Positions 10,075 to 63,466 of a stretch of 64,000 bases of DNA are shown here, piece after piece; position 1 is the stretch's first letter; the number at the start of each line of letters is the position of its first letter. This stretch comes from an archaeon. Its GTDB lineage: Archaea; Iainarchaeota; Iainarchaeia; Iainarchaeales; 1-14-0-10-31-34. Under the pieces are notes generated by a model. The model was not told the DNA's origin. It saw nothing but the letters and a program-made list of their open reading frames with translations, and made no database searches. The position numbers were made by a program, and so were the translations under genes. Location: NCBI GenBank assembly GCA_043819075.1, contig JBDRFE010000002.1, positions 114-64,113 of the forward strand. Reading direction: 5' to 3'.

Positions 10075-12720
10075 TCACTGCTGTTTTCCTTTTTCCCTTA
10101 TTGCAGCCTGTGCTGCTGCTAATCTTGCAATCGGCACTCTGAACGGAGAACAAGAAACATAAGACAAATTCAGTGAATGGCAGAATTCAATTGAAGCAGG
10201 GTCTCCTCCGTGTTCGCCGCAGATTCCCATCTTAATTTTCTGGTTTGTTTTTCTCCCTAATTCAACTGCAATCTGCATTAACTTGCCTACTCCTAAAACA
10301 TCAACTGAAACAAAAGGCGAAACAAGAAGAATTTTTTGTTCAATGTATTTGTTCAAGAATTTTCCTTCAACATCGTCTCTTGAAAAACCAAAAGTTGTCT
10401 GGGTTAAATCATTTGTGCCAAAAGAAAAAAAATCTGCATGCAATGCAATTTCATCTGCAGTCAGGGCCGCTCTAGGCAGTTCAATCATTGTGCCAATTGA
10501 AATTCCAGAGTCAGGCGCAATTTCATTCAAAATTTTTTCAACTAATTTCCTTGAAATCTCTAATTCTTTTGCAATTCCAACTAATGGAATCATTATTTCT
10601 GGCCTTGCGTCAATGTTTTTTTTCTTCAAGTTAAGGAAGGCTTCTGCAATGGCTTTAGTCTGCATTTCAATTATTTCAGGATAAATTATTCCCAAACGAC
10701 ATCCCCTGAAGCCAAGCATTGGATTGCTTTCATGCAATTCATTTACTTTTGCAAGCAAAGCCTTTTTTTCGCTTAAATCTGAAACTAATTTAGAGTCATC
10801 CCTTGAATCAATTACGTGCTTTAAGTCAGAGATTTCCTGAATCAAGTTTTCCCTTGAAGGCAGGAACTCATGCAATGGCGGGTCAATCAGCCTGATAGTG
10901 ACAGGAAAGCCTTGCATTGCCTCTAAAATGCCTTCAAAATCTGTTCTCTGCATTTCAAGAAGCTTATCCAAAAAATGCTTTCTTTCCTTTAAAGAAGAAC
11001 TTAAAATCATTTTCTGAACAATTGGCAGCCTTTCAGGAGCAAAAAACATGTGCTCTGTCCTGCACAAGCCAATTCCTTCTGCACCTAATTCAACTGCTTT
11101 TCTTGCATCAGCCGGGGTGTCAGCATTAGCCCTTACCCCTAAAACTTTTAAGTCATTACTCCATTCAAGGAGTTCAGAAAAAAATTCATCTGGCTCTGGC
11201 GCAATTAATTTTACTTCCCCTAAAAAGAATTCTCCTGTAGCGCCGTCAATTGAAATAAAATCCCCTTCTTTTATTTTAGTGCCGTTAATATTCATTTCTT
11301 TTTTTGGGTAATCAATTTTTAGTTCCTCGCAGCCGACAATACATGGTTTTCCCATTCCTCTTGCAACAACAGCTGCATGAGATGTTTGGCCGCCTCTAGA
11401 AGTAAGAATTCCTTTTGATGCAATCATTCCGTGAATGTCATCAGGAGAAGTTTCATGCCTGACTAAAATAACATTTCCTGTTTCACTTTCTTTTTCAGCT
11501 GAATTAGCGTCAAAAAAAACTCTTCCGCTTGCAGCCCCAGGAGAAGCATTCAAGCCTTTGCCTAAAGCATTCAGTTTTTGGGTTGGGTCAATTCTTTTAT
11601 GCAATAACTGGTTTAAGTCAAAAGGATTAATTCTAAGCAAAGCTGTTTCTTTTGAAATCAGTCCTTCTTCAAATAATTCAACTGCAATCCTTACAGCAGA
11701 CTGGGCAGTCCTTTTTCCATTCCTTGTCTGCAAAAAAAACAGTTTTCCGTTCTCTATAGTGAATTCAGTGTCCTGCATGTCCTTGAAATGATTTTCTAAT
11801 TTATTGCAGACAAAAACAAATTCATTGAAGATTTCAGGCAAAATTGATTTTAATTCAGAAATTTTTTTCGGAGTGCGAATTCCTGCAACAACATCTTCTC
11901 CTTGAGCGTTCATCAAAAACTCGCCGTACAATTCTTTTACTCCATTAGAAGGGTTTCTGGTAAAACACACTCCTGTGCCAGAAGTATTTCCTAAATTGCC
12001 GAAAACCATTTCCTGAATTACAACTGCCGTGCCCCAGTCAGAAGGAATCTTGTTTAGTTTTCTGTAAGTAATTGCCCTGGGGTTATTCCAGGAATTAAAT
12101 ACTGATTTGACTGCCAAAAACAATTGTTCTTTAGGGTTTTCAGGAAAAGGATTTCCTGTCTCTGATTCAATCAAAGCCTTATAAGATTCTATTATTTTTT
12201 CCAAAGAAGCTTCAGTTAACTCAACATCAAGTTTTATTCCAGAAGCAGTTTTTTCTTTTTCTAAAATTTCTTCAAACTTGTCGTGCTCTAATCCTAACAC
12301 AACGTTTCCAAACATTTGGAGAAAACGCCTAAAAGAATCCAAGACAAATCTTTTGTTGCCTGTTTTTTCTGTTAAAGCATTTCTTGCTTTCTCGCTTAAG
12401 CCTAAATTTAATACAGTGTCCATCATGCCAGGCATTGAAGTTCTTGCACCGCTTCTGACAGAAACCAGCAAAGGGTTATCTGAATCAAATTTTTTTCCTG
12501 TTTTTTCTTCAAGAGAATTCAACGCAGAATTAACCTGTTCTTCTAATCCTTCGGGAAAATTGTTTGAATCAAAAAAATTAATGCATGCTTGGGTTGAAAT
12601 CACAAAACCTTTTGGCACAGGCAAGCCAAGCTTGGTCATTTCACATAAATTGCTTCCTTTTCCGCCTAAAAGCTCTTTCATTTCCTTTGAGCCTTCCTCA
12701 AAAAAATACACGTATTTCAA
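10075..12720 (-). CDS. ppdK: pyruvate, phosphate dikinase
   Basis: GGKGSNLCEMTKLGLPVP (ATP-grasp N-terminus), the phospho-His region GGQTSHAAVVARGMGKPCIVG, and a C-terminal PEP-utilising domain. The ORF-track N-terminal extension (MDAVLL...) is non-protein-like. The likely start is the TTG at 12720, giving MKYVYFFEEGSKEM, which matches the PPDK N-terminus. Confidence 0.9.
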   Translation of the reverse strand: MKYVYFFEEGSKEMKELLGGKGSNLCEMTKLGLPVPKGFVISTQACINFFDSNNFPEGLEEQVNSALNSLEEKTGKKFDSDNPLLVSVRSGARTSMPGMMDTVLNLGLSEKARNALTEKTGNKRFVLDSFRRFLQMFGNVVLGLEHDKFEEILEKEKTASGIKLDVELTEASLEKIIESYKALIESETGNPFPENPKEQLFLAVKSVFNSWNNPRAITYRKLNKIPSDWGTAVVIQEMVFGNLGNTSGTGVCFTRNPSNGVKELYGEFLMNAQGEDVVAGIRTPKKISELKSILPEIFNEFVFVCNKLENHFKDMQDTEFTIENGKLFFLQTRNGKRTAQSAVRIAVELFEEGLISKETALLRINPFDLNQLLHKRIDPTQKLNALGKGLNASPGAASGRVFFDANSAEKESETGNVILVRHETSPDDIHGMIASKGILTSRGGQTSHAAVVARGMGKPCIVGCEELKIDYPKKEMNINGTKIKEGDFISIDGATGEFFLGEVKLIAPEPDEFFSELLEWSNDLKVLGVRANADTPADARKAVELGAEGIGLCRTEHMFFAPERLPIVQKMILSSSLKERKHFLDKLLEMQRTDFEGILEAMQGFPVTIRLIDPPLHEFLPSRENLIQEISDLKHVIDSRDDSKLVSDLSEKKALLAKVNELHESNPMLGFRGCRLGIIYPEIIEMQTKAIAEAFLNLKKKNIDARPEIMIPLVGIAKELEISRKLVEKILNEIAPDSGISIGTMIELPRAALTADEIALHADFFSFGTNDLTQTTFGFSRDDVEGKFLNKYIEQKILLVSPFVSVDVLGVGKLMQIAVELGRKTNQKIKMGICGEHGGDPASIEFCHSLNLSYVSCSPFRVPIARLAAAQAAIREKGKQQ

Positions 12721-24289: not shown

Positions 24290-24540
24290 TTTAATCAGGC
24301 GAATTTTTCGGGTTTAGTGGCTTTTCTTGTATGGCATTTGACTCAAACAGGCTTTGTTTTGCCCTTGTTTTTCTGGCCTGTTTTTTTCCGGTTTTTTGGC
24401 TGTTTTTTTGCTGTTTTCTGGTTAAGCGAATAAAGGAATTGTTTTTGTTTTTTCTCAGAATTTTTGCAAAATTTTTCCACAAAACCGTTTTTTTAGCCAC
24501 TTTGCAGCCATTGTTTTTTTGGGTTTTTTGAGCCATTCCC
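24290..24540 (+). repeat. phased oligo-T tracts (about 11-bp periodicity) - intrinsically curved DNA, candidate island boundary
   Basis: ggcctgTTTTTTTccggTTTTTTggctgTTTTTTTgctgTTTTctgg and further T5-T8 runs spaced about 10-11 bp apart. Non-coding. Confidence 0.5.
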
Positions 24541-24990
24541 GGAAACGCCTTAGTTGTATACATAACCCTTTGGCTTGCTGGTTCCCTCACCCAGCCCCGT
24601 TGTTTTTCACACCACCACCCCCTACTTCCACTAAAATTCAGTTTTGACGATTTCTGATAAAGTTCCCTCTATGAGATTCGGTATAATCTGTATTATGGCG
24701 CATCCTGAAAACAAAAAATGCCCTAAAATAAGGCAAGGAAAAGGCGAATCTAGGGCACACGCCAGCAGTATCGGCGATTTTAAGCAGTTTTTTAGTTTTT
24801 ATGCCTTAAAATCAGAAATTAACTTTGAATAGTTATTGTTGCGCCAGAGCCGTTTTTGGCTGGTTGGCAGAGCGATTAGCGGGACGCGGTTAGCGGCACA
24901 ACAACACCTTGGTTATGTAGAAGATTGAGTGGTTTTGGTTTTGGAAAACAAATATAAATTCAATTAAACCCTTGTTATTAAGTTGATTGT

Positions 24991-27593: not shown

Positions 27594-28040
27594 CTATTCT
27601 CTTTGATAAGTTCCCATTAACTCGCCTTGGGCTAAAAGCCTTCCTTTCATTGCTTTCTCTAAATCTGTTTTAGTTGAGCCTTCTTTCAGGCTTAAATTCG
27701 AGTCTAATGCATAAACCTTGAAGTAATACTTGTGGGTTCCGCTTGGCGGGCAGGGGCCGTGAAATTCAAGGCTTGCTGCGCTATTTGTTCCTTGCACCCC
27801 GGGAACAGAGTTTTCTTGGATTGTTTTTGTTTTTCCTTCAACAGGAATATTCCATACAACCCAGTGCGTCCAAACCCCACCTGGCGCATCAGGGTCGTCT
27901 ACAATTAACGCAAGGCTTGCGGTTTTTTCCGGAATGCCTGAAATCATTATTTCAGGATTAAAGTCTGTTCCGTCACAAGAATATTTTGCCGGAATAGCTT
28001 TTCCTGAAGAAAAAGCATTAGTTGAAACTTTTAACTTCAT
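27594..28040 (-). CDS. phosphatidylethanolamine-binding protein (PEBP / YbhB-YbcL family)
   Basis: DPDAPGGVWTHWVVWNIP and YYFKVYALD match PEBP signatures. Probable start at MKLKVST, preceded by GGAGGG. Confidence 0.8.
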   Translation of the reverse strand: MKLKVSTNAFSSGKAIPAKYSCDGTDFNPEIMISGIPEKTASLALIVDDPDAPGGVWTHWVVWNIPVEGKTKTIQENSVPGVQGTNSAASLEFHGPCPPSGTHKYYFKVYALDSNLSLKEGSTKTDLEKAMKGRLLAQGELMGTYQRE

Positions 28041-37531: not shown

Positions 37532-37621
37532 GTTTAAATAAGTTTTTTCACTTAATTTTTTCAGCTGATTCTCAAAGACAGTTTATATTTTTATTGACAT
37601 AATTTTATTTATTGTTTTTCT

Positions 37622-37694
37622 GGGTCCGTAGCTCAGTCGGTAGAGCACCGGCCTTTTAAGCCGGGTGTCAGGGGTTCGAATCCCCTCGGACTCG
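37622..37694 (+). tRNA. tRNA-Lys (TTT)
   Basis: GGGTCCG TA GCTC AGTCGGTA GAGC A CCGGC CTTTTAA GCCGG GTGTC AGGGG TTCGAAT CCCCT CGGACTC G. Acceptor stem with one G-U pair. Upstream TATA-like TTTATATTTTTATT. Confidence 0.85.
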
Positions 37695-37815
37695 TTAGCC
37701 GCTTCAGTGCGGCTGTAACTGTGCACGGCGTTCGCTTCACTCAGCCGAGTGTGCTTCGCTTTCGCGGTTTCGCCCGCGAGCCCCGAAAAATGTCAAGCCA
37801 TTGCTTTGCAACGGC
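37695..37815 (+). repeat. GC-rich hairpin-dense repeat element (copy 1), between the two tRNA-Lys genes
   Basis: agccgcTTCAGTgcggct, cgcggTTTCGCccgcg and aagccattgcTTTgcaacggctt hairpins. Shares gtgcttcgcttt..cgcggtttcgcccgcgag and cactcagccgag segments with the element at 59160-59455. Confidence 0.6.
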
Positions 37816-37892
37816 TTATTAATTTCTCATTTCTTTCTTAAAACTTTTGCAGTTAAAATTTAAATGAATAAAACTTTTTTTGAAAAAGTTTT

Positions 37893-37980
37893 GGGCCCAT
37901 AGCTCAGTCGGTAGAGCACCAGCCTCTTAAAAAAGTTCAGGGAAAGCTGGGTGTCGGGGGTTCGAATCCCCCTGGGCTCG
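37893..37980 (+). tRNA. tRNA-Lys (CTT) with a 15-nt intron at canonical position 37/38
   Basis: GGGCCCA TA GCTC AGTCGGTA GAGC A CCAGC CTCTTAA [aaagttcagggaaa-type insert] GCTGG GTGTC GGGGG TTCGAAT CCCCC TGGGCTC G. Removing about 15 nt after the anticodon loop restores a 73-nt cloverleaf. Confidence 0.75.
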
Positions 37981-38112
37981 TAACTGCCACAGCTAGTTAA
38001 CATCTGAATATGTCGAGCTGTTTCATTTCATTCAACAGCTCATTAATATTTTTTTTCACCGGCAGTCATGTGTTTAGTTCTTGTTTTAAAAGAGAAAAAA
38101 TAATTTTTTATA

Positions 38113-39048
38113 ATGCAACCTGCCGACTTTCTAAAAACTAATTATGGCTTGATTCCTAAAAGCCAGCTTAAGGAAATTAAAATTCCAGTTGCACCGAAAG
38201 CCCGGCTCCTTAATTACTTGCCAGATTTGTTTGTTGAAGAAGTTGATGAAAAATCTTCTTATTTAAGCTGTCTTTTTGATGGCAAATACTTTGATATAAA
38301 CAAAGATTTTTTGAGGAAAGATTTGAATAAAATTTATTCAAAATTCGTGTTTGTAAAAGCAAAAGGGGCGGCACCAGTAAAGTTGCCAAAAATCTTGAAC
38401 CCTGAACTAGCTTACTTTATTGGCTATTTTATTGGCGACGGCGGTTTAAAGGATATTAAAAAAACATACGCCAAAACCAAAACATTTGAACATAAAATTA
38501 TTGTTGGCGACGAATTTCTTTTGCAGGCTGAAAGGATTCAAAAACTTTTTTTTGGTTTGTTTGGAGCCGAGTTTCCTATCAGGGATGAAAGAATCAGAAA
38601 AAGAGAAAAACTTTATTATCTGAATCCTACAAACAAAGTCATTTATCGCTTTTTGACGCAGGTTTTTGATATTCCTTCAGGCAAAAAACATGTTTTGTTG
38701 AAAATTCCAAAGTTAATTCTGGCTGCTCCGTTAGAAATTAAGAAGTGGTTTGCACGAGGGGTGTTTGATGCCGATGGTGAAACAAGAGCAGTTGAAAAAG
38801 GATTGAACTCCCAGCCAAGAATAAAGCTTAGAATGAAATCACACAAATTTATACAGTCGATGAAACTGCTTTTGAAGGAAGTTTTTGGGGTCAGCGTGAA
38901 TGGTCCTTATTTTGATTCAAACAAGCAATCAAGTTATATTCAAATAGAAAGACACGGGGATATCAAAAAACTTAATAATGAAACCTTGTTCATTCATCCA
39001 GTAAAACAATGGCGGCTTAATAAAATGGTTTTGCTTATGAAAACATAA
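38113..39048 (+). CDS. free-standing double-motif LAGLIDADG endonuclease-like protein
   Basis: Two dodecapeptide motifs, LAYFIGYFIGDGG and KKWFARGVFDADGE, about 110 aa apart. 311 aa. Confidence 0.6.
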   Translation: MQPADFLKTNYGLIPKSQLKEIKIPVAPKARLLNYLPDLFVEEVDEKSSYLSCLFDGKYFDINKDFLRKDLNKIYSKFVFVKAKGAAPVKLPKILNPELAYFIGYFIGDGGLKDIKKTYAKTKTFEHKIIVGDEFLLQAERIQKLFFGLFGAEFPIRDERIRKREKLYYLNPTNKVIYRFLTQVFDIPSGKKHVLLKIPKLILAAPLEIKKWFARGVFDADGETRAVEKGLNSQPRIKLRMKSHKFIQSMKLLLKEVFGVSVNGPYFDSNKQSSYIQIERHGDIKKLNNETLFIHPVKQWRLNKMVLLMKT

Positions 39049-39087
39049 CTTTAAAACATTTCCATAGCCTATTTGATAAATGGTTCT

Positions 39088-39205
39088 GGGGTCGTAGCTC
39101 AGCCTGATATTGTAGAGGAATAATCTTTTTATTGGCTCACAGTAGGCTTTGGAGAGCACACGGCTGAAGACCGTGGTGTCGCGGGTCCAAATCCCGCCGA
39201 CCCCA
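39088..39205 (+). tRNA. tRNA-Phe (GAA) with a roughly 44-nt non-canonical intron in the D-loop
   Basis: GGGGTCG TA GCTC AGCCTG[atattgtagaggaataatctttttattggctcacagtaggcttt]GGA GAGC A CACGG CTGAAGA CCGTG GTGTC GCGGG TCCAAAT CCCGC CGACCCC A. The spliced D-arm GCTCAGCCTGGGAGAGC is the canonical tRNA-Phe sequence. Confidence 0.7.
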
Positions 39206-39209
39206 TTTT

Positions 39210-53348: not shown

Positions 53349-54356
53349 TTATAAAACCGAAATAAACCCTGAAACCAGTGTTTTGAACCCAAAAAACAAT
53401 ATCACTGATGCAATGAATATTACTGGAAAATATTTTATTCCAAGCTGGGGTTTTCTTTCAGTTAATACTCCAATGAACAGGCTTGAAAGAATTGCATTTC
53501 CGAAAAACAGCACTAAAGCCATTTTCTGCATGAAATCTGGCGTGATGAGCAGTTCAGAGCTTAGGAAGCCAACATTAATTGTTCCTGTTGTTGTTTGTTG
53601 TGCCTGAATTGAAGAAATCATTTCAAGGAATTGCACTGAAATTGACATTAAAAGCGGGGTGGCAACAATTATTACAAACAACACAAACATTACATACATT
53701 TTTGTCCCTGAAATCATTTCTTTTTTCAGTTCATCTGTTTTTGAAATATCTTCTGCACTGGCTTCAAGAATGTTTGCAAGCTTTCCCCCTGACTTCAGGC
53801 TTTCAGAGAAAAATGAAACGCTTTCGCTTAAAATCCTTGAATCAATTTTTTTTGCCAGTTCTTTCAGTGAGCCGCTGAATGATTCAATGCCAAGGCTTTT
53901 GGCTGTAACTGTTTTTATTTCTTCTGCTAAAGGGCCGAATTCTTCTCTTGAACTGCTTTTGAATGCATAAAATGGTGTCATTCCTGACCTGAGGTTTGAT
54001 GCAACTAACAGCAGGAAATCAGGCAGAACGCTTTCAACTCTTTTTCTCCTGTCATCAATCTGGTATTCTAAATGCAGGTAATAAAGGAATAAAGTTGTTG
54101 CAAAAAAAATTATGCCAAAAATTATTCCTGCAAGAAACTGCAATCCAATTTCAGTGAATTCAATGAATCTTCCAAGGCTTAAAGGCATCAAAAAACCAAT
54201 CAAAAAAAATAATACTGCAAGCATTAATCTTTTTCCAAGCCAGGTATCTGTGTCCTGGCTTATTCCTGCAAAATCTAATCTGGCTGAAACAAGTTTTCTT
54301 TTTTTTTCAGGCACCAGCTCTGAAAGCCTTTTCTGGATTAATTCAAGTTGTTTCAC
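53349..54356 (-). CDS. type II secretion system F-domain membrane protein (FlaJ/TadC-like)
   Basis: Polytopic, with a T2SSF-like cytoplasmic domain. Adjacent to the FlaI/TadA-like ATPase. Confidence 0.6.
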   Translation of the reverse strand: MKQLELIQKRLSELVPEKKRKLVSARLDFAGISQDTDTWLGKRLMLAVLFFLIGFLMPLSLGRFIEFTEIGLQFLAGIIFGIIFFATTLFLYYLHLEYQIDDRRKRVESVLPDFLLLVASNLRSGMTPFYAFKSSSREEFGPLAEEIKTVTAKSLGIESFSGSLKELAKKIDSRILSESVSFFSESLKSGGKLANILEASAEDISKTDELKKEMISGTKMYVMFVLFVIIVATPLLMSISVQFLEMISSIQAQQTTTGTINVGFLSSELLITPDFMQKMALVLFFGNAILSSLFIGVLTERKPQLGIKYFPVIFIASVILFFGFKTLVSGFISVL

Positions 54357-55237
54357 ATTATCACCTTTGGCTTCCTGTTTTTTACAAAACCAATCAATAT
54401 AACCTGAACTGCAAAGGCAAAAAAAATTGTTGCCATTACATGAATTTCACTTATGTCAGAGCCGCCCATTGAAGAAAGGATTATAAGAAAAGTTATTCCT
54501 AAAGTCGGAATTGCTGCAGCCAAAAGCAAATACATTAAAATCCATAAATTGAGTTCAGCTGAATAATTTTTTATTCCCCTTAACTGGTTTGATGTAAGAG
54601 TGTTAATTGTTGTTTCTAATGCACCTGTAATGCTTGCCCCGCTTTTAATTGAAGTTACAATCTGCCAGCAGGCTTTTTTTAAGTACTCTGATTTGGTGCG
54701 CAAAGCCATTTTTTCCAGTGCTTTTGCTTCTGGTGTTCCTGCAACAATTTCTTTTACAACTAACCGAAATTCTTTTGATACAACGCCATAATCTGCTTTT
54801 GCAGTGTTTTCAATTGCATTAAATAGCGGAACACCTGATTTTGTCTGCAAAAGCATTCCCTTTAATGCAAAAACAAGGTCCTGGTCTATTCCCAAGGCAA
54901 TGTTTTTTGAAATTATTCCAGGGTAAATTATGTGCAGGAAAAAAAATAATACAAAAAAAGCAAACCCGATTAATAAATTCACGGGAAAAACTGTTTCTAA
55001 ACTAAAATCCCTTAAAAAAATAAGCATTGTTCCAAGCAAAAAAAATACTGTTCCATAAACCAGGGCTGAAATAATTGATGCAGTAAGGTATTCTTCTGCT
55101 GAAAGAGGTATTTCTGCTTTCTTTAAATCATATTTTGTTCCTACAAAAATTTTCTGCAGGAAGTTTCCAACAAACAAAATCCTTTTATTGAATTTTTTTG
55201 CCTGTTCTGTTGAAAAAACAAGGAATTTTACTCTCAT
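54353..55237 (-). CDS. type II secretion system F-domain membrane protein (FlaJ/TadB-like)
   Basis: T2SSF domain (LKGMLLQTKSGVPLFNAIENTAKADYGVVSKEFRLVVKEIVAGTPEAKALEKMA). A 4-bp overlap with the downstream paralogue. Confidence 0.6.
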   Translation of the reverse strand: MRVKFLVFSTEQAKKFNKRILFVGNFLQKIFVGTKYDLKKAEIPLSAEEYLTASIISALVYGTVFFLLGTMLIFLRDFSLETVFPVNLLIGFAFFVLFFFLHIIYPGIISKNIALGIDQDLVFALKGMLLQTKSGVPLFNAIENTAKADYGVVSKEFRLVVKEIVAGTPEAKALEKMALRTKSEYLKKACWQIVTSIKSGASITGALETTINTLTSNQLRGIKNYSAELNLWILMYLLLAAAIPTLGITFLIILSSMGGSDISEIHVMATIFFAFAVQVILIGFVKNRKPKVIM

Positions 55238-55247
55238 TTATTTCACT

Positions 55248-56981
55248 TCAGATTTTATCCAGATTAATTTTTTTTTCTGATGCATTAATTATTGTTTCAG
55301 GGTTGCTGTAATATAATTCCATTACTTTTCCCACTTCGTTAACTGAATTAATTTTTTTTTCAGCCATCCATTCAAGGATTTTTTTTCTTTGCTGTAAATC
55401 CTTGTTTATTTCCTGTTCTGTCAGCCCTGTATGAATGTTTAATTCCCCGTAAAATTTTACCGGCTCTTCTGTTTTGTCCCATGAATCAGTTCTAGGAGAC
55501 CAGCGGTAAATTGTGTTGATTGAAACGCTTCCTTCATGAGAGCCGGTTTCAATTTCACTTATTTCTAATGTCCTTCTCTTGTTTGTTTTTCTGTCCCTGT
55601 ACTGAACTAAAACCAAATGCAGTGCTTCTATTTCTAATGCAGGAATTTCAATCGGCGGCTCTGTCAGCCTTCTAATCAATTGATAACCTGAATCAGCGTG
55701 CATTGTGGAATAAACTGAATGCCCTGTATGCATTGCTTCAAACAATACTTCTGCTTCTTTTCTTTTCCTCATTTCGCCTAAAATTATTCTGTCAGGCCTC
55801 ATTCTAAGAGAGGACATCATTAAGTCAAACATGCTTATTTCTCCAAGGCCTTCTGGGTTAGGGTTTCTTGTTGTTAACGGAATCCAGTTCCATTTAAGGT
55901 AATCAGGCAGAGTTAATTCTCTTACGTCTTCTATTGTTATTATTCTATGATAGCTTGGAATCATTGCACATAAAGTGTTTAATGCAGAAGTCTTTCCTGA
56001 AGCAGTTGAGCCTGCGACCATTAAATTCATTTCATAGTGTATTGCCATCCACAAAAAAGCCGCCATCTCTGAATTCATTGTATGCTTTTCCTGAATAAAA
56101 TCTGTTATTGTCCAGGGTTTTCTTGCAAACTTTCTTATTGTAATAGTGTTTCCTAAAGAAGAAACAGGGAATAAAGTGGAATTAACTCTGTCTCCGGTTC
56201 CTAAATGAGCATCTAGAATAGGATTTAATGTTGTTATTTCTCTTCCGACTTTTCTTGCAATCTGTGCCGCATAATTTTTTATTAATTCCTCTGATTCAAG
56301 CATTATGTTTGTTTTCAGCCAGCCGAATTCTCTGTGATAAACTGCAATAGGCGTTATAGAAGAATTTATTGCAATTTCTTCAAGCAAATCGTCTTTCATC
56401 AGCAATTCAAGTTTTCCCATTCCATACATTTCATGCAATAAGATTCCTGCAAGCTTTTCAGTTATTTTTTCCTGGTTTTCTGGCAGGTATTTCAGCAGGG
56501 TTTTGTTCACTGTTTGAATGAATTTTTTCTTTAATTTCTCGTTTTTTTCGTCTTCATCCCCTGGTTCAATTTCAATGTTTTTTGCGATTTCTTCTTTTAA
56601 TTCGTCAATGAATTTTTGTGTTGCGGAATCAATTTCATCGAATTCAACATTGTATTGGTGTGTCCTGCTTCCTTTTTCTTCTGTAATCCTTGTTTTTGCT
56701 TTGGTGTTGTCTGCATTCAATTCATATTCTAATAAAATTTTTTGCGCTTTAACAGGTATTTCAGGCCCTAATTTTATTTCTTTTTCAATTTTTATGAAAG
56801 GCTTTGACAAAACGTTTGCAGGGTAAATTACGTTCAATAACCCTGTTTTTTCCATTATTTTTGCAGTTAATTCAAGTTTTTCTTTTTCCCATCCCAGTTC
56901 AGCTGAAATTTCTTCAATTGAAAGCTTTTTTTCCCTGTTAAGGAGTTCAGCTAATTCAAGGATTTTTGTTTTTATTATCAT
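55248..56981 (-). CDS. type IV pilus/archaellum assembly ATPase (FlaI/TadA/VirB11 family)
   Basis: Walker A LMVAGSTASGKTSALNTL. Asp-box and His-box region (RIITIEDVRELTL...PDRIILGEMRKRKEA). Confidence 0.85.
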   Translation of the reverse strand: MIIKTKILELAELLNREKKLSIEEISAELGWEKEKLELTAKIMEKTGLLNVIYPANVLSKPFIKIEKEIKLGPEIPVKAQKILLEYELNADNTKAKTRITEEKGSRTHQYNVEFDEIDSATQKFIDELKEEIAKNIEIEPGDEDEKNEKLKKKFIQTVNKTLLKYLPENQEKITEKLAGILLHEMYGMGKLELLMKDDLLEEIAINSSITPIAVYHREFGWLKTNIMLESEELIKNYAAQIARKVGREITTLNPILDAHLGTGDRVNSTLFPVSSLGNTITIRKFARKPWTITDFIQEKHTMNSEMAAFLWMAIHYEMNLMVAGSTASGKTSALNTLCAMIPSYHRIITIEDVRELTLPDYLKWNWIPLTTRNPNPEGLGEISMFDLMMSSLRMRPDRIILGEMRKRKEAEVLFEAMHTGHSVYSTMHADSGYQLIRRLTEPPIEIPALEIEALHLVLVQYRDRKTNKRRTLEISEIETGSHEGSVSINTIYRWSPRTDSWDKTEEPVKFYGELNIHTGLTEQEINKDLQQRKKILEWMAEKKINSVNEVGKVMELYYSNPETIINASEKKINLDKI

Positions 56982-57023
56982 TTTTCTGCCTTCACCAATA
57001 ATACTGTTTTTTTATTAATAAAC

Positions 57024-57890
57024 CTAACTAAACTTCTTTAATTCAATTAAAGAACTTGAATTAAGATCCTGCTGAAAATAATTCAAATCAATGTCAGCAA
57101 AAACTTTTAATCCAGAATTCAGGTCAAGCTGGGGCATTACAGCCTTTAATGCAAGCAATGTTTTTTTCTGGCCAAAAGTTTTATTCCACACTCTTACAGC
57201 ATTAATTTTTCCTTCAAAACTTCCAAAATGAATTTCTATTACGTCTTCTGCACTGCCTGAAAACCTTATTACAATAACATTATCTGAAAGCGAATTAACC
57301 TGAAGGATTTCATGTTTTTCGTTAAGTGAATTCAGGTCAGAATAATTAAAGTTAACAGTTAAATCCGGGCTTGAAGTGAAAAGTGTTTCATTCACTTGAA
57401 TTGAACTCGCATTTACATTAAGGTTCAAGTCAATTGAAACTGCATTGGTGTTCCTGTTTTCAGCAAAAAATTCCGCTGAACTCCCTGCACCAAAACCATA
57501 TTCATATACTAATCCGTTGCTGAACTTAACTGGAACAGAACTGCTTATTCTTTCAGAGCCGATTTTTATTTTCGTGTTGTTTACCGCAGAATAGCTGGTT
57601 TCAGCGAATTCCTTGAATTTGTTTATTCCTGCAATTTTGCTGTATTCTGCGGGAAGGGTTTCAATGAAAGTTATTTCAAGGTTTGGTTCAATTTGAATGC
57701 TTATTTGTGTTCCCAGAATTTCGCTTAAATCAAACCCCAAATCATCTTTCACAAATTCTGCCTTAGAATACTTTTTTATGTCATTAAAAGAATAATTCCT
57801 GTCCTGTGCATTTTGCGAGTAAAACACTGAAAACAACATCATTGAAGAAAGCAGGATTATTGCGCTAAAGCTTATTATGTATCCTTTCAT
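57024..57890 (-). CDS. pilin-like/secreted hypothetical protein with N-terminal hydrophobic anchor
   Basis: MKGYIISFSAIILLSSMMLF N-terminus. S/N-rich body. Confidence 0.4.
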   Translation of the reverse strand: MKGYIISFSAIILLSSMMLFSVFYSQNAQDRNYSFNDIKKYSKAEFVKDDLGFDLSEILGTQISIQIEPNLEITFIETLPAEYSKIAGINKFKEFAETSYSAVNNTKIKIGSERISSSVPVKFSNGLVYEYGFGAGSSAEFFAENRNTNAVSIDLNLNVNASSIQVNETLFTSSPDLTVNFNYSDLNSLNEKHEILQVNSLSDNVIVIRFSGSAEDVIEIHFGSFEGKINAVRVWNKTFGQKKTLLALKAVMPQLDLNSGLKVFADIDLNYFQQDLNSSSLIELKKFS

Positions 57891-58306
57891 GCATTCACCT
57901 TATGCCATGCCTTTATTTCAGCCCAATAAAATTTTTCCTGTTCTATTACAAAAAAACTTCTTTTCACTGAAATAACTGAAATCCCTTTTTCACAGCCTTT
58001 TTTTGTTGCAGTGCTTAATGCGCTTGAATTATTGTCAAAATCAATTAAATTGATTTCAAAGCATAAATTTTGTGAAGTCTTATTTAAGTACTTCGCTATT
58101 TCATTGTTTTTTCCCTGCAGTACAGCCTGCTGGAGTTTGCTGTTTTTTTCAAGCACTGTTAAAACGTCTTCTGAAACCAGTGCAAGCTTTGCTTCGTTTA
58201 ATGAATTCAGCCTGCTTTCATTGAAATGCACTGCAATGGAAAAAAGCATTGCAAAAGCAATAACCAATGCAATTACTGCATCAACTGAAATAACAAACCC
58301 TTTCAC
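57887..58306 (-). CDS. pilin-like protein (class III signal peptide-like)
   Basis: MKGFVISVDAVIALVIAFAML. A 4-bp overlap with the neighbour. Confidence 0.5.
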   Translation of the reverse strand: MKGFVISVDAVIALVIAFAMLFSIAVHFNESRLNSLNEAKLALVSEDVLTVLEKNSKLQQAVLQGKNNEIAKYLNKTSQNLCFEINLIDFDNNSSALSTATKKGCEKGISVISVKRSFFVIEQEKFYWAEIKAWHKVNA

Positions 58307-58809
58307 CCGAACACACCTAAAACAAGTTTTCTTTCAACACCGTTTAACAAAACAAATCTTTCAATTACAACTGCCTTGGTTTCGGGCCCGGGCATAACGC
58401 CAAAAAACTTGATTTCACTTGCTGAATTCATTTCTGTTACCTTAAAATAAAAATCGTATTTCCCTAACCCAAGAATTTCTTTTATTTCACTGTAACTGCT
58501 TTGGTTTAAGTCAATAAGCTTGTCTATTTTTTTTTCATCCAAAACATTTCTTTCTTTTGCAATGCCAATTGAATTAACATTCAGGTCATTCATTAACTCC
58601 CATGAATCCGGGTCGCCTGGAGTTGAAACCAACGCCTGAGAAGCATTCAGGGTTTTTTCCTGCATCTCTGAATAAAATTCTTCTTCGTTAAGTGAATTCT
58701 GTATTAAGCCAAAAGAGCTAACTGAAATAACCAGAATAAACAATAATGCAGTTAATGCAACAATTAAGTCTGTTGTAAAAATCTGGCCTTTAGAGTTCTT
58801 CAACTTCAA
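58303..58809 (-). CDS. pilin-like protein (class III signal peptide)
   Basis: MKLKNSKGQIFTTDLIVALTALLFILVISV has a KG-Q cleavage context. Confidence 0.55.
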   Translation of the reverse strand: MKLKNSKGQIFTTDLIVALTALLFILVISVSSFGLIQNSLNEEEFYSEMQEKTLNASQALVSTPGDPDSWELMNDLNVNSIGIAKERNVLDEKKIDKLIDLNQSSYSEIKEILGLGKYDFYFKVTEMNSASEIKFFGVMPGPETKAVVIERFVLLNGVERKLVLGVFG

Positions 58810-59449
58810 TCACTCCGTTCAGGTTTTTAACTGAAATTTCTGTTGCATTTTCTTTGCTTATGAAAACTATTTTTTTTGCTATCAGTGAAGCTGAAACAAA
58901 CTGCCCTTGCCTGAAAAAAACTTTAACTGAGTTTTCCTCAAACCCTAATTCAAAATCAAATTGTTTTTCAATTACTGTCGTACTTCCGTTTCCGCTCAAA
59001 TAAATTCCGTTGACTGCTCTTGTAGTTTTTTCCAAAAGGGTTTTTGCCTTTATTTTTTCTGAATTAAAATCAGTGAGTTCTTTTTGCTGGAATGAAACAA
59101 AAACAACCAAAGAAAATAATGAAAAAAGAATAACAAGCGTTATAACGAATTCAGCTGAAATCTGCCCTCTCGCGGTTTCGCCCGCGAGTGACGAAATACG
59201 GCATAAAGCCGTATGTGCTTCGCTTTTCGCTCGCGAGTGACGAAGCACAACCTGCGGTTGAGCGTGCTTCGCTTTCCCGCTTCCGTGCGGGAGTAACGGA
59301 GCACTATCTTCGCTTGCGCTCGATAGAGCCAGCACAGCTTTACGCTGTGCCTCGCTACAACCAGCCAAAACTGGTTCACGGCATTCACTTCGTTCAGCCG
59401 AGCTGGCACACCTTTGGCGTGCCTCGCTGTTTTTTGTTTTTTTTTTCAT
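58790..59449 (-). CDS. pilin-like protein whose 5' end is occupied by a GC-rich repeat insertion (N-terminal about 90 codons of the ORF are repeat-derived; native start apparently lost)
   Basis: The mature-pilin-like segment ARGQISAEFVITLVILFSLFSLVVFV begins exactly at the repeat boundary (about 59177). No ATG/GTG/TTG lies in frame between it and the repeat-encoded MKKKTKNSEARQRCASSAERSE... Confidence 0.45.
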   Translation of the reverse strand: MKKKTKNSEARQRCASSAERSECREPVLAGCSEAQRKAVLALSSASEDSAPLLPHGSGKAKHAQPQVVLRHSRAKSEAHTALCRISSLAGETARGQISAEFVITLVILFSLFSLVVFVSFQQKELTDFNSEKIKAKTLLEKTTRAVNGIYLSGNGSTTVIEKQFDFELGFEENSVKVFFRQGQFVSASLIAKKIVFISKENATEISVKNLNGVIEVEEL

Positions 59450-59455
59450 TTAATC
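59160..59455 (+). repeat. GC-rich hairpin-dense repeat element (copy 2, about 295 bp) inserted in the pilus locus
   Basis: Hairpins ctcgcggTTTCGCCcgcgag, atacggcATAAAgccgtat, gtgcttcg...cgaagcac, cccgcTTCCGTGcggg, gcacagcTTTACgctgtgc, ggcacACCTTTGGCgtgcc. The GTGCTTCGCTTT unit occurs three times. Shares about 50 nt with 37695-37815. Confidence 0.6.
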
Positions 59456-61265
59456 ACGGAGTCCTCTGAATAATGCTAATGTCATCAACATAAAAATAAT
59501 CTCCTGTGCTGTTCATCCATGAATCAAATCCAATCCAGAATTCGCTTGAAAGAGTGTAAGCATTCAAGTCAAAAGCATAAAAATGATAAACATTATCTGA
59601 ATCAGCTGAAGTAAAAGTTTTTATTACACTCCAGGTTATCCCGTCAGATGAAACAAGGACATTCTGGTAATCGCTTCCTTCAAATGAATTTACTTTAGCC
59701 CAGAATTCAAGCCTTGGCTTTGAATAAGAACTTAAGTCAACTGCTCTTGTAGCATAGCCTGTTGCCAGCCTAAGCCTCAAATGTCTTGGAGGAGTGTATG
59801 TTCCTCCTGAAGTTACAAGAGATGAATCGCCTGAATGAATCCAGCCTGCAGTCCACCCTGTTCCTGAATTCCAGCTTGTGTCCGGAAAGTTATCAAATGC
59901 AATTACAACAGGATATTGGATTACATTTATTTGTATAACCCTGTTTTCATTGCTGCTTCCTTCATTAGAGTTAGCTGAATCATCAACACAATTGATACCC
60001 CAAAAATAATTTCCATTAACCGAAAAAGTTTTTGTAAAACTCTGTGTTATTCCTTCGCTTACTGAATTGTCTGTCTGGTCAACTGCTCCGTTAATTATTA
60101 GTTCACAGAAAGCAATTCCAGAGTCAATGTCATTAACAGAATAATCAAACTGCACTGAAAAGTTTCCTGAAACAAATCCGTTTGAAGGCGACACCAAGCT
60201 TATTGTTGGTGCAAGAGTATCATTAAACGGAACACTGACTGTAACTGAAACATAATCTGAATTAATTCCATCTGAAGCAGTTATTGTTCCTGCACTGCTT
60301 CCTGCCCCGATTGGCACATCAATTATTGCAGTGAATTCATTGCAGGTATTTCCTGTAAGCAAACCGACTGAAGGAATTGGCTGAATCCATAAAGCAATGG
60401 TTCCGGAAAAAATAAAATCAATTCCTGTTATTGTTGAATCAGTTGTATTGCATAACTGGAAACTCGTTGAATCAGAGTTTCCTTCAATTATTGTTGTATT
60501 CCAGTAATTTGGGAAAACCCTTAAAGGCTTTTCAGCTGAACCAGTTATTACTTCAAGTGTTACCGGAACAACAATTCTTTTTGCACCATCAGTTGTTGCT
60601 GCATCAAAAATTATTTCCCCTGAATAATTGCCTGCTGCTGTCTGGCTTGAAGAAAAATTAATGTCAATTGAATAGCTTGAACCAGATGCTACAACAAAAA
60701 AATTGCTGCTTAAATTCATTGAAACCTCAACTGAATTCCAGTTAAAGCTTACTGTTACATTTGCATCAGCTGAAGTGCTGTTTATTATTGAAATGCTTTC
60801 AGTTGAATTTGAATCCTGTGCTATTGCAGAGTAAATGCTTCCCTTGTTTGACTCAATTTTAATGTCACCTATTACAACATATCCTTCAAATGCTGTAATC
60901 CAAACCCAGTGGCCTCCTGGTTCTGTGGGAATGCTTCCGCTTAACTCTGTTTTTGATTCAGCTATTAAGTCTGTTCCGTTTACATTAATTCTTACAGTCT
61001 TGTCTGAAACACTTGTTTTTGTTTCATCAACTCCTGATGGAATTACCACAAAAATCTGTTTTGTTGTGCCAGGCCCTGAAACAAAAACTTCTTCTGCTGT
61101 CCTTGCAATTTTGTTTACAGTGTTTTGTGCATCAGAATTAGCTTTAGCTGAATTAATTCCTGTTATTTCATTGTTTGATGTAACAAGGATTAATCCTATT
61201 GCAACCATTGAAACAGCAAGAATAACTAATAATTCCACTGAAGCCTGGGCTTTTCCGCAAACCAT
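59454..61265 (-). CDS. large pilin-like / adhesin-like protein with class III signal peptide
   Basis: MVCGKAQASVELLVILAVSMVAIGLILV (E at +5). 603 aa. S/T/N-rich with repeated beta-rich segments. Confidence 0.55.
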   Translation of the reverse strand: MVCGKAQASVELLVILAVSMVAIGLILVTSNNEITGINSAKANSDAQNTVNKIARTAEEVFVSGPGTTKQIFVVIPSGVDETKTSVSDKTVRINVNGTDLIAESKTELSGSIPTEPGGHWVWITAFEGYVVIGDIKIESNKGSIYSAIAQDSNSTESISIINSTSADANVTVSFNWNSVEVSMNLSSNFFVVASGSSYSIDINFSSSQTAAGNYSGEIIFDAATTDGAKRIVVPVTLEVITGSAEKPLRVFPNYWNTTIIEGNSDSTSFQLCNTTDSTITGIDFIFSGTIALWIQPIPSVGLLTGNTCNEFTAIIDVPIGAGSSAGTITASDGINSDYVSVTVSVPFNDTLAPTISLVSPSNGFVSGNFSVQFDYSVNDIDSGIAFCELIINGAVDQTDNSVSEGITQSFTKTFSVNGNYFWGINCVDDSANSNEGSSNENRVIQINVIQYPVVIAFDNFPDTSWNSGTGWTAGWIHSGDSSLVTSGGTYTPPRHLRLRLATGYATRAVDLSSYSKPRLEFWAKVNSFEGSDYQNVLVSSDGITWSVIKTFTSADSDNVYHFYAFDLNAYTLSSEFWIGFDSWMNSTGDYFYVDDISIIQRTP

Positions 61266-63079: not shown

Positions 63080-63378
63080 TTGCGGTTTTCAGGCAGTTTA
63101 AGCATTGGGCACGCCCTGAAGTCGAATCAATTCAAGAAATTGGATTAGCCCTTAATTGTTCTTCCCTCCGCTGCTCCCAAAAGCATTAAGCAGTAAAATT
63201 TCCGTTGCTCCCTTCCAGGCCTGGCGGGTTGACTTTAAAGCCCAATCTCAGGGGACAGAGGTTCATTGAAACAGTCAAGGATCCTTTTCCCTGGATTAAA
63301 TCCTTCTCCAAAGCTTCGGCTCCTGCTAAAGCAGATTTCAGGTAACAAGGAACTGCTGACTCCCCGGCCTAGCCCAAA
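63080..63378 (-). ncRNA. signal recognition particle RNA (7S/SRP RNA); ends approximate
   Basis: The minus strand contains CCGCCAGGCCUGGAAGGGAGCAACGG, matching the universally conserved SRP RNA domain IV (helix 8) AGGUCCGGAAGG(A/G)AGCA(G/A)C with GGAA tetraloop. It is GC-rich relative to its surroundings. A TTTTTAAA box lies about 24 nt upstream of the GGGCUAGG 5' end. Confidence 0.55.
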
Positions 63379-63466
63379 AAATTGTGTTAAAAAAGGTTTA
63401 AAAACTTTAAAAAAACAGGAAAAAGGTTATTAAGTGGTTTTTTCATTAATTTATTAGTGAGTTAAA

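Follow-up and report, generated by a model that had tools for sequence, protein, structure and literature searches.

GC-rich palindromic modules at tRNA ends and in a pilin-like leader of an AT-rich archaeal genome

Within a 64,000-nucleotide stretch of an archaeal contig (JBDRFE010000002.1; hereafter the window), we found two mosaics of short GC-rich hairpins. Copy 1 (E1) lies in the 3′ flank of a tRNA-Lys(UUU) gene, and copy 2 (E2) lies inside the leader of a pilin-like gene. Arrays of these modules lie at gene boundaries, that is, at tRNA ends, just past a protein stop codon, or before the Arg-Gly-Gln of pilin-like proteins, and within pilin leaders they are in frame. We propose that the modules form a lineage-specific family of short palindromes that resembles repetitive extragenic palindromes (REPs) and bacterial interspersed mosaic elements (BIMEs), as well as the Rickettsia palindromic elements (RPEs), and that the family persists where processing removes extra sequence. 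We put the probability of this reading at roughly 0.6. The main features are as follows.

37621-37695, plus strand: tRNA-Lys(UUU), the anchor of copy 1 (ARAGORN and Rfam).
37696-37817, plus strand: copy 1, a mosaic of hairpins that flanks tRNA-Lys(UUU) on its 3′ side, identical in the independent assemblies L012 and L014.
37892-37981, plus strand: tRNA-Lys(CUU) with a 15-nt intron at position 37/38 (ARAGORN/Rfam and the L009 orthologue).
58790-59449, minus strand: intact 219-codon pilin-like open reading frame (ORF) with a 94-residue leader, MKKKTKN-[array]-AR/GQISAEFVITLVILF...
59168-59431, minus strand: copy 2, a 264-nt mosaic of GC-rich hairpin modules that makes up pre-pilin codons 7-94.

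The window has a GC content of 35.3%, and we take it to be archaeal because it contains an archaeal signal recognition particle RNA (63103-63379). A preliminary description had pointed to two GC-rich islands, and both are real: 59168-59431 is 57.6% GC, the highest of all 264-nt stretches (the runner-up is at 49%), and 37696-37792 is 60.8% GC. These are the only places in the window with perfect hairpins whose stems are 80% GC or more, and the other GC-rich spots (24538-24921 and 27716-27934) are unrelated to the hairpin family. The perfect stems have 5-8 bp and the loops 3-13 nt, so that these are short GC-rich palindromes of the kind that defines REPs and BIMEs. The fold energy of 59160-59440 is far below that of shuffled sequences (z = −6.2 for the plus strand and −5.9 for the minus strand). 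An Rfam 15 scan, at the gathering score and at E ≤ 1, gave no relevant family for either copy.

As the preliminary description also held, the islands are chains of hairpin units: GTGCYTCGCT begins four units of copy 2 (at 59215, 59264, 59347, and 59419). The islands share four segments. Segment a (TCGCGGTTTCGCCCGCGAG) is identical at 19/19 positions (37762-37780 and 59170-59188, E = 2.7e-5). Segment b (TGTGCTTCGCTTT) is identical at 13/13 positions (37750-37762 and 59214-59226) and has a second match in copy 2 at 59264-59276, with a one-base offset. Segment c (CACGGCGTTCGCTTCACTCAGCCGAG) matches at 22/26 positions (85%; 37724-37749 and 59377-59402), and segment d (CCGCTTCAGTGCGG) at 13/14 (93%; 37699-37712 and 59277-59290). 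The common segments are in permuted order, as had been claimed: copy 1 has them as d-c-b-a, and copy 2 as a-b-b-d-c. The parts of copy 2, from the start codon to the presumed cleavage site, and those of copy 1 are listed here.

59429-59449, minus strand: start codon and A-rich Lys/Thr tract ATGAAAAAAAAAACAAAAAAC, unstructured (from the sequence).
59316-59430, minus strand: strain-variable outer third, with hairpins at 59304-59326, 59332-59350, 59359-59376, and 59405-59423.
59264-59304, no strand: compound unit GTGCTTCG-CTTT-[CCCGC-TTCCGT-GCGGG]-AGTAA-CGGAGCAC.
59215-59248, no strand: compound unit GTGCTTCG-CTTT-TCGCTCGCGA-GTGA-CGAAGCAC, with an 8-bp outer stem.
59196-59214, no strand: hairpin ATACGGC-ATAAA-GCCGTAT, with a 7-bp stem, of the 5-nt loop class.
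59169-59188, no strand: M1, the terminal hairpin CTCGCGG-TTTCGC-CCGCGAG, with the adjoining tag TGACG (CGTCA on the gene strand).
59162-59170, minus strand: AGA-GGG-CAG, encoding Arg-Gly-Gln, where prepilin peptidase presumably cuts; the terminal hairpin contributes two bases to the Arg codon from its 3′ arm.
37697-37714, 37724-37749, 37751-37780, and 37795-37817: parts of copy 1, namely a hairpin, a segment, a unit with M1, and an AT-richer hairpin.

The M1 of copy 2 is identical in copy 1 (37762-37780) and is found again beside tRNA genes in L053, L078, and L132. The unit at 59264-59304 is about 80% identical to the tRNA-proximal unit of copy 1, with compensatory changes in the stems (alignment by eye).

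According to the preliminary description, copy 2 displaces the 5′ end of the pilin gene and leaves it without an in-frame start. This is incorrect. The ORF at 58790-59449 opens with ATG-AAA-AAA-AAA-ACA-AAA-AAC and continues without a stop across the whole GC-rich stretch into RGQISAEF (RGQISAEFVITLVILFSLF...), with MKKKTKN on one side of copy 2 and RGQ, the class III signal-peptide motif, on the other. The leader contains zero stops in the coding frame and 1 and 6 stops in the other two sense frames. The A-rich start tract just follows the stop codon of the upstream gene and a Shine-Dalgarno-like motif (GTGAT), and this start context recurs in L001, L002, and L007. In RGQISAEFVITLVILFSLFSLVVFV, past the insert, a hydrophobic helix comes after [K/R]-G-[Q/A], and the same locus encodes a PilB-like ATPase and PilC-like proteins. 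We call the gene "pilin-like" from this motif and context, not from a significant profile match (Pfam PF04021, class III signal peptide, matches only below threshold). In an AlphaFold (AF2) model, the mature part is predicted with a confidence score (pLDDT) of about 90, as a 54-residue helix and then seven strands, and residues 1-95 have a pLDDT of 43-50.

The in-frame state of the leader is general. Among 16 homologues with a well-conserved mature part, the leaders range from 0 residues (MK or MKK joined directly to GQ..) to about 100, are built of the same hairpin modules, and are 26-101 residues long in most orthologues. All 16 proteins have an MK(K)(K)T start and a leader in frame. Arrays are present in 14 of the 16 (protein identity of 49-91%), the two without an insert being P0011 and P0013, the latter from L008 (MKGQ.., MKKGQ..). 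We compared reading frames for seven array-bearing leaders, namely those of the window, L001, and five loci that were found independently of the coding state of the leader (L002, L004, L007, L076, and L126). There were 0 stops in the coding frame and 1-6 in each of the other sense frames. L150 and L151 show the same leader build. As with intragenic elements of the RPE type, the pilin array is inserted in frame, the ORF is intact, and there are homologues without the insert. In nine of nine leaders examined at the DNA level, the terminal hairpin supplies the Arg codon at −2 (AGA, CGA, AGG, or CGC) from the end of its 3′ arm, and the seven leaders for which we counted charges are net positive (K+R minus D+E = 4-10). 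Given the low pLDDT of residues 1-95 and the two insert-free orthologues, the leader looks dispensable in these models and comparisons. L076 and L126 have arrays in a second leader as well, that of the pilin-like gene which comes next in the operon (orthologous to window 58303-58809). A profile scan of genome contigs with the pilin alignment gave only five loci, and exact-product look-ups of the 219-residue ORF and of its 603-residue neighbour returned no record.

Within this fixed frame, the content of the array changes quickly. By blastn, L001 (from another data set) matches the window at 98.9% and 99.7% identity in the two flanks, and the outer third of the array cannot be aligned. On the gene-proximal side, 147 of 148 nt of the array are the same. 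In L001, window positions 59316-59430 (115 nt) are swapped for 136 nt of other hairpins; the difference is 21 nt and the frame is kept. In L001, the breakpoint falls within the loop of a hairpin, where the recurrent motif AAGCGAAG stands. The window-specific outer third itself consists of modules typical of the family, which are also present in L056, L078, L093, and L133. The anchors of the arrays are fixed and their content is fast-changing, by gain, loss, and exchange of modules. Target duplications flank two arrays: L133 repeats 13 nt of the 3′ end of a tRNA-Leu, and L111 about 46 nt from the start of a gene; we saw no flanking duplications at the window copies. The array in L111 (4432-4607) lies between two imperfect copies of the gene start (Shine-Dalgarno-like motif, ATG, and first 7 codons), and the upstream copy is now a short ORF whose stop codon is inside the array.

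These observations bear on the idea that the pilin array is a contingency locus, in which hairpin-driven indels would flip the frame and turn the pilus on or off. The preliminary description had suggested a scar of phase variation. Hairpin arrays are prone to slippage, the array is polymorphic between strains (115 nt vs. 136 nt), and leader length is highly variable among orthologues. However, the frame is intact in 16 of 16 proteins and at every DNA locus even though the array is hypervariable between strains, the length difference between strains is divisible by 3, and the same repeats flank tRNAs, where frame is meaningless. Phase variation thus lacks direct support, and we consider it very unlikely.

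We grouped the recurrent modules of the arrays into the following types, all given for the pilin-sense strand.

M1: (C)CGT(C/T)A-C-TCGCGG-RCGNAA-CCGCGA(G).
19-mer: GC(A/T)C-NNN-loop-NNN-GTGC, with loops TTTAY or RTAAA.
Further hairpin module: GTGCTATC-loop-GATAGCAC.
Compound units: GTGCTYCG-TYACT-[hairpin]-AAAG-CGAAGCAC.
AT-richer hairpin: AAGCCATTGC-NNN-GCAATGGCTT-GACATTTTTCGG, which follows M1 in the window, L053, and L111.

The single hairpins measure 19-21 nt (e.g., GCAC-NNN-(RTAAA/TTTAY)-NNN-GTGC or CTCGCGG-N6-CCGCGAG) and compound units are 35-45 nt long. The stems of the hairpins covary. The frame GC[AT]C-N3-N5-N3-GTGC occurs 20 times in 256 kb, and the inner triplets are complementary in 15 of these (0.3 expected), with 9 different triplets. 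In the 19-mer alignment, 18 cells show a double change, as compared to 5.4 ± 2.2 in shuffles (0 of 500 shuffles reach 18), and the signal collapses if the register is slid. Among the orthologues, M1 likewise appears as CTCGCGG/CCGCGAG, CCCTCGA/TCGAGGG, and CGCGCG/CGCGCG. Adjacent 19-mers are often head-to-head, with RTAAA and then TTTAY (L111, L139, L093, and L132), in the form [GCAC..RTAAA..GTGC]-TA-[GCAC..TTTAY..GTGC]. E2 contains loops of both polarities, which gives the alternating orientation that is characteristic of BIMEs and REPINs. Most copies (window, L007, L009, L076, L121, and L126) have CGTC or CGTT at a distance of 3 nt from the stem of M1, which copy 1 and L111 lack; the GTAG tag of REPs was not found in the array copies that we examined. 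Because one module, AAAGCGAAGCAC, is read in two frames within the window ORF, as AKSEA and as KAKH, it is the nucleic acid that is conserved and not the peptide. A protein-level repeat was rejected on the same grounds. We also rejected a CRISPR-like array (there is no constant repeat and there are no spacers), a C/D or H/ACA guide RNA (the boxes are absent and the internal loops are too small), and a tRNA-like minihelix (there is a 5-nt linker between the inner and outer stems).

The modules recur outside the window. A scan of metagenomes with the exact M1 pattern CTCGCGGRCGNAACCGCGA returned at least 120 stretches. Among the matches listed, 98 of 120 were in high-GC contigs with unrelated flanks, and we count them as chance matches. 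The other 22 were in contigs below 45% GC, and about 18 of these were in contigs at 30-36% GC with other modules of the family beside M1. (For 33% GC DNA, we estimate that CTCGCGGRCGNAACCGCGA is expected by chance about 4e-13 times per site.) Among other, non-redundant loci, 9 contain words of 13 nt or more from E2, and 6 contain such words from E1. The modules are thus dispersed in AT-rich contigs with relatives labelled Micrarchaeota, Diapherotrites, or Iainarchaeum. As they occur in other orders and contexts in about 20 AT-rich contigs and are swapped between strains, the preliminary view that this is a modular family rather than a simple duplication stands. A viral scan with CGTYACTCGCGGNNNNNNCCGCGA gave 15 matches, all in contigs of 49-73% GC with unrelated flanks, which we attribute to chance.

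The placement of the arrays is precise. With intron-aware ARAGORN and Rfam, hairpins begin 0-2 nt past the ends of genes for tRNA-Lys(UUU), Lys(CUU), Leu (two genes), Gly, Arg, Trp, Pro, and Ser. At tRNA-Glu, the hairpin is on the 5′ side and ends 1-2 nt before the 5′ end of the gene. In L089, the array begins 1 nt past a protein stop codon. M1 has its untagged end toward the gene in about 15 of 20 cases. The arrays at tRNA 3′ ends and past the stop codon have the extragenic location, typically at 3′ gene ends, that is expected of REPs and BIMEs; the pilin-leader arrays are intragenic. Many of the tRNA genes beside arrays are 150-210 nt long (L030 2629-2826, L053 88-240, L121 1669-1852, L132 779-936, and L133 3006-3212), from which it appears that they carry unusually long introns; several were missed by plain ARAGORN. 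Also, in L056 (about 1-85) and L143 (about 72-140), a conserved, covarying structured sequence (GTTAAGGGGCAAGYCAGGGATCTGC...CTTGCTTCCTTAAC) adjoins M1, and it has no Rfam match at E ≤ 0.1.

Such placement raises the possibility that the hairpins are functional cis-elements, acting as RNA or DNA at the boundaries of highly expressed genes. They could be a barrier to exonucleases, an aid to termination or processing, or a site for supercoiling or protein binding, as for BIMEs. In the pilus operon, they could stabilize the pilin cistron or tune its translation relative to the upstream gene for the 603-residue protein. We regard this as the serious rival explanation, possible if doubtful. Besides the exact placement (0-2 nt from tRNA ends and 1 nt past a stop codon), it would account for the T-rich runs that often follow arrays (at the Lys-CUU trailer in L009, in L089b, and in L139b), for the retention of the same anchors across relatives at 49-91% protein identity, for the conservation of the loop motifs (TTTAY/RTAAA and RCGNAA) while the stems covary, and for the onset of the array 21 nt after the AUG, which leaves the initiation region unstructured. 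On the other hand, array content differs even between strains, and arrays are absent from two pilin orthologues and from many tRNA genes (including the window's tRNA-Met and a Phe-like tRNA). Modules are mirror-oriented at 5′ vs. 3′ anchors, hence the RNA sequences differ. Mismatches in the stems (4 G·T vs. 2 A·C) do not favour either strand. Without such a preference, and without an Rfam family for either copy, the preliminary suggestion of a structured RNA is not supported.

The tRNA-Lys locus illustrates both the precision and the turnover. Copy 1 begins 2 nt past the discriminator base of tRNA-Lys(UUU), which bears out the preliminary placement directly after that base, and it does lie between two tRNA-Lys genes, Lys(UUU) at 37621-37695 and Lys(CUU) at 37892-37981. 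(We judged the identity of the second from its intron-less orthologue in L009, at 11554-11628; ARAGORN miscalled it as Leu(taa).) L009 is a relative at 80% identity, and it has different modules between the end of tRNA-Lys(UUU) and the conserved flank TTTCTCATTTC. The window's tRNA-Lys(CUU) has no GC array, and in the L009 orthologue M1 follows directly. Both tRNA-Lys trailers of L009 therefore differ from the window in their modules, between flanks that are conserved. Two independent assemblies of the same genome end in this region, L013 inside tRNA-Lys and L014 just after tRNA-Lys-CUU, which suggests that assembly of the tRNA-Lys/array locus may be difficult. L012, a third assembly, crosses the region with an array identical to that of the window.

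Breaks in two assemblies near the tRNA locus, a composition foreign to the genome, and the frequency of tRNA introns in these organisms might suggest that the GC-rich stretch is an artefact of assembly or contamination, or else an intron (bulge-helix-bulge or self-splicing). We find either highly improbable. The same sequences appear in independent assemblies (E1 is identical in the ENA and NCBI assemblies, and two thirds of E2 are identical in the Logan assembly), and even the window-specific outer third is made of family-typical modules. With these independent assemblies, the metagenome copies, and the covariation of the stems, the concerns raised in the preliminary description (an artefact, no further copies, no covariation) are all contradicted. 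As for an intron, frame and freedom from stops are kept in every orthologue, which an intron would not require; the A-rich 5′ junction has no complement in the array, so that a bulge-helix-bulge helix is impossible; and no Rfam intron family matches.

We also considered whether a small RNA from the 3′ trailer of tRNA-Lys (copy 1) could pair with the pilin mRNA leader and regulate it in trans. As the modules are on the same DNA strand and the genes are on opposite strands, the trailer RNA would be antisense to the pilin mRNA, over 19, 13, and 26 nt. The computed duplex is at −107.6 kcal/mol, vs. −84.6 ± 5.8 kcal/mol for shuffles, and the gain from cofolding is about 24 kcal/mol, so that the pairing is possible in terms of energy. 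However, this complementarity is a trivial result of shared palindromes, strong local hairpins lock both partners, and the modules at both sites change between strains and species with no visible coordination. We give this explanation next to no credence.

Returning to our proposal that the palindromes persist where processing removes extra sequence, we envision that the pilin array is transcribed and translated to give a long, disordered, positively charged N-terminal extension. Prepilin peptidase would cut between the Gly and the Gln of Arg-Gly-Gln and discard the predicted 94-residue leader. As the leader would be taken off by the peptidase, the mature pilin would be unchanged. Similarly, arrays in tRNA leaders and trailers would be trimmed by RNase P and RNase Z. 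The repeats would then persist in "safe harbours" because the extra sequence is discarded there during maturation. Selection on the kinds of insertion that can be survived would be the reason why the Arg-codon junction and the 21-nt unstructured start are constant. Spread and shuffling probably occur via hairpin-prone single-stranded DNA and short shared motifs such as AAGCGAAG. Candidate routes are template switching, ectopic recombination at AAGCGAAG-like motifs, and an HUH-type enzyme acting in trans.

Several points weigh against this proposal. First, we did not identify a mobilizing enzyme for the hairpin family, and the flanking duplications are of unequal length (L133 has 13 nt, L111 has about 46 nt, and the window has none). 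Second, arrays appear sparse: each 12-20 kb ortholog locus has only one, in the pilin leader, and the 64-kb window has two. Third, the arrays abut tRNAs at 0-2 nt and M1 keeps a constant polarity, which is more exact than one would predict from passive tolerance and hints at targeting or function. Fourth, the presence of arrays in 14 of 16 pilin orthologues, down to 49% identity, could mean that they are useful rather than tolerated. Finally, the class III signal peptide does not reach the threshold of Pfam, and the translation of the array and the cleavage of a 94-residue leader are predictions from sequence. In light of the single-nucleotide placement and fixed polarity, a more elaborate possibility is that the mosaics are a lineage-wide, self-renewing boundary device set at the ends of strongly expressed genes (tRNAs and pilins), propagated by transposase-free, hairpin-templated copying, and that in the pilin gene they were co-opted as a hypervariable, translated pro-peptide whose last hairpin encodes the recognition residue of the peptidase. 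We consider this rather unlikely.

Among known systems, REPs, BIMEs, and REPINs are similar in that they are short GC-rich palindromes (20-40 nt), sit at 3′ gene ends, and form clusters with neighbours in the opposite orientation. As in the archaeal family, their sites are conserved, their content varies between strains, and they are occasionally located in ORFs (PMC3733652). Indeed, REPs inside ORFs have been described that include clusters encoding 43-82 residues (PMC3733652). In contrast to REPs and BIMEs, the family described here is in an archaeal host, lacks the GTAG tag, has no known associated RAYT (REP-associated tyrosine transposase), has arrays 0-2 nt from tRNA ends and in frame for up to 88 codons, and is apparently present at a low density (about one array per 10-30 kb). 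(We counted two arrays in the 64-kb window and at least about 20 AT-rich metagenome contigs with one module, among the matches listed; REPs themselves are dispersed in high copy number, often more than 100.) RAYT classes have been reported from bacteria only, and in archaea only the IS200 subclass of Y1 transposases has been reported (PMC6006769). As the terminal tag is inconsistent, membership in REPs sensu stricto is not established.

RPEs and the CGTC-tagged REPs are similar in another way: they are inserted in frame in protein genes and are carried as extra peptide segments (PMC3733652), as is predicted for the pilin array, and a CGTC/CGTT motif adjoins the stem of M1 in most copies. No dedicated transposase is known for RPEs either (PMC3733652). 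Unlike RPEs, the modules form multi-module mosaics, lie in a leader that precedes the cleavage site rather than in the mature protein, and lack the tag in some copies (e.g., the M1 of copy 1). The GC clusters, double-hairpin elements, and repetitive hairpin-forming elements of mitochondria (in yeast, Allomyces, and sponges) are also GC-rich modules in AT-rich compact genomes, single or arrayed, with rapid turnover, both between and within genes (PMC4478555, PMC2800124). Mitochondrial GC clusters merge, shuffle, and form arrays (PMC4478555). However, these elements are organellar, whereas ours are on the chromosome of a free-living or episymbiotic archaeon, and the 2-3-nt flanking repeats of the yeast clusters (AG/ACT) were not seen in the archaeal family.

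The preliminary description had also offered a MITE-like element (MITEs being miniature transposable elements with inverted repeats) as a possible explanation. Archaeal MITEs, which derive from insertion sequences (e.g., in Sulfolobus), are likewise non-coding and presumably non-autonomous repeats, and to that extent the label has loose support. There is no fixed-length unit with terminal inverted repeats, no fixed target-site duplication, and no known parent insertion sequence, and we found no related one. Because a fixed unit bounded by terminal inverted repeats and a fixed target duplication are absent, RPEs, REPs/BIMEs, and organellar GC clusters fit better than a MITE. The host gene, for its part, resembles those for archaeal class III signal peptides, with [K/R]-G-Q, a hydrophobic helix of about 20 residues, and an operon with a PilB-like ATPase and PilC-like proteins. 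The leader of these peptides is usually a handful of residues, whereas here it is mostly 26-101 residues, encoded by repeat DNA, and strain-variable.

In the literature that we searched, we found no description of such repeats in DPANN archaea, and the palindromic family is apparently undescribed in archaea. REP-like repeats are known almost entirely from bacteria and organelles, as is their biology (mRNA stabilization, genome plasticity, and RAYT domestication). That a family of this kind is found in genome-reduced DPANN archaea, where RAYTs are unreported, raises the question of how it spreads without a known enzyme. The pattern of anchors suggests a rule, which is that repeats survive where the cell later excises extra sequence: in tRNA leaders, tRNA trailers, and the signal-peptide leader. 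There is also a practical side. The arrays make pilin genes seem truncated or chimeric and stretch the predicted signal peptides to a length of about 100 residues. At the tRNA locus, contig ends of two assemblies coincide with them. Those who annotate metagenome-assembled genomes should be able to recognize such arrays.

Outside of the two arrays, the window contains the rest of the pilus operon, whose synteny is kept in L002, L150, and L151.

53349-61265, minus strand: pilus operon, encoding the 603-residue protein, the focal pre-pilin, three further pilin-like ORFs, a T2SSE ATPase, and two T2SSF proteins (Pfam).
55248-56981, minus strand: T2SSE ATPase (Pfam).
54353-55237 and 53349-54356, minus strand: the two T2SSF proteins (Pfam).

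Downstream of tRNA-Lys(CUU), a free-standing ORF of the LAGLIDADG type (38113-39048, plus strand, 311 residues; Pfam PF14528, E = 1.2e-6) lies between that gene and a tRNA-like gene; its orthologue in L009 has only 211 residues. The tRNA-like gene (39086-39206, plus strand) has the anticodon loop GAA (Phe), and about 40 nt are inserted near its beginning. It was missed by ARAGORN and by the Rfam gathering scan, and its orthologue in L009 (12425-12558) is recognized as a tRNA with 41.6 bits. Finally, about 400 nt at 24590-24990 are free of ORFs and have GC-rich patches (24538-24636 and 24829-24921); this region has no Rfam match, is outside of the hairpin family, and may be an unannotated RNA.

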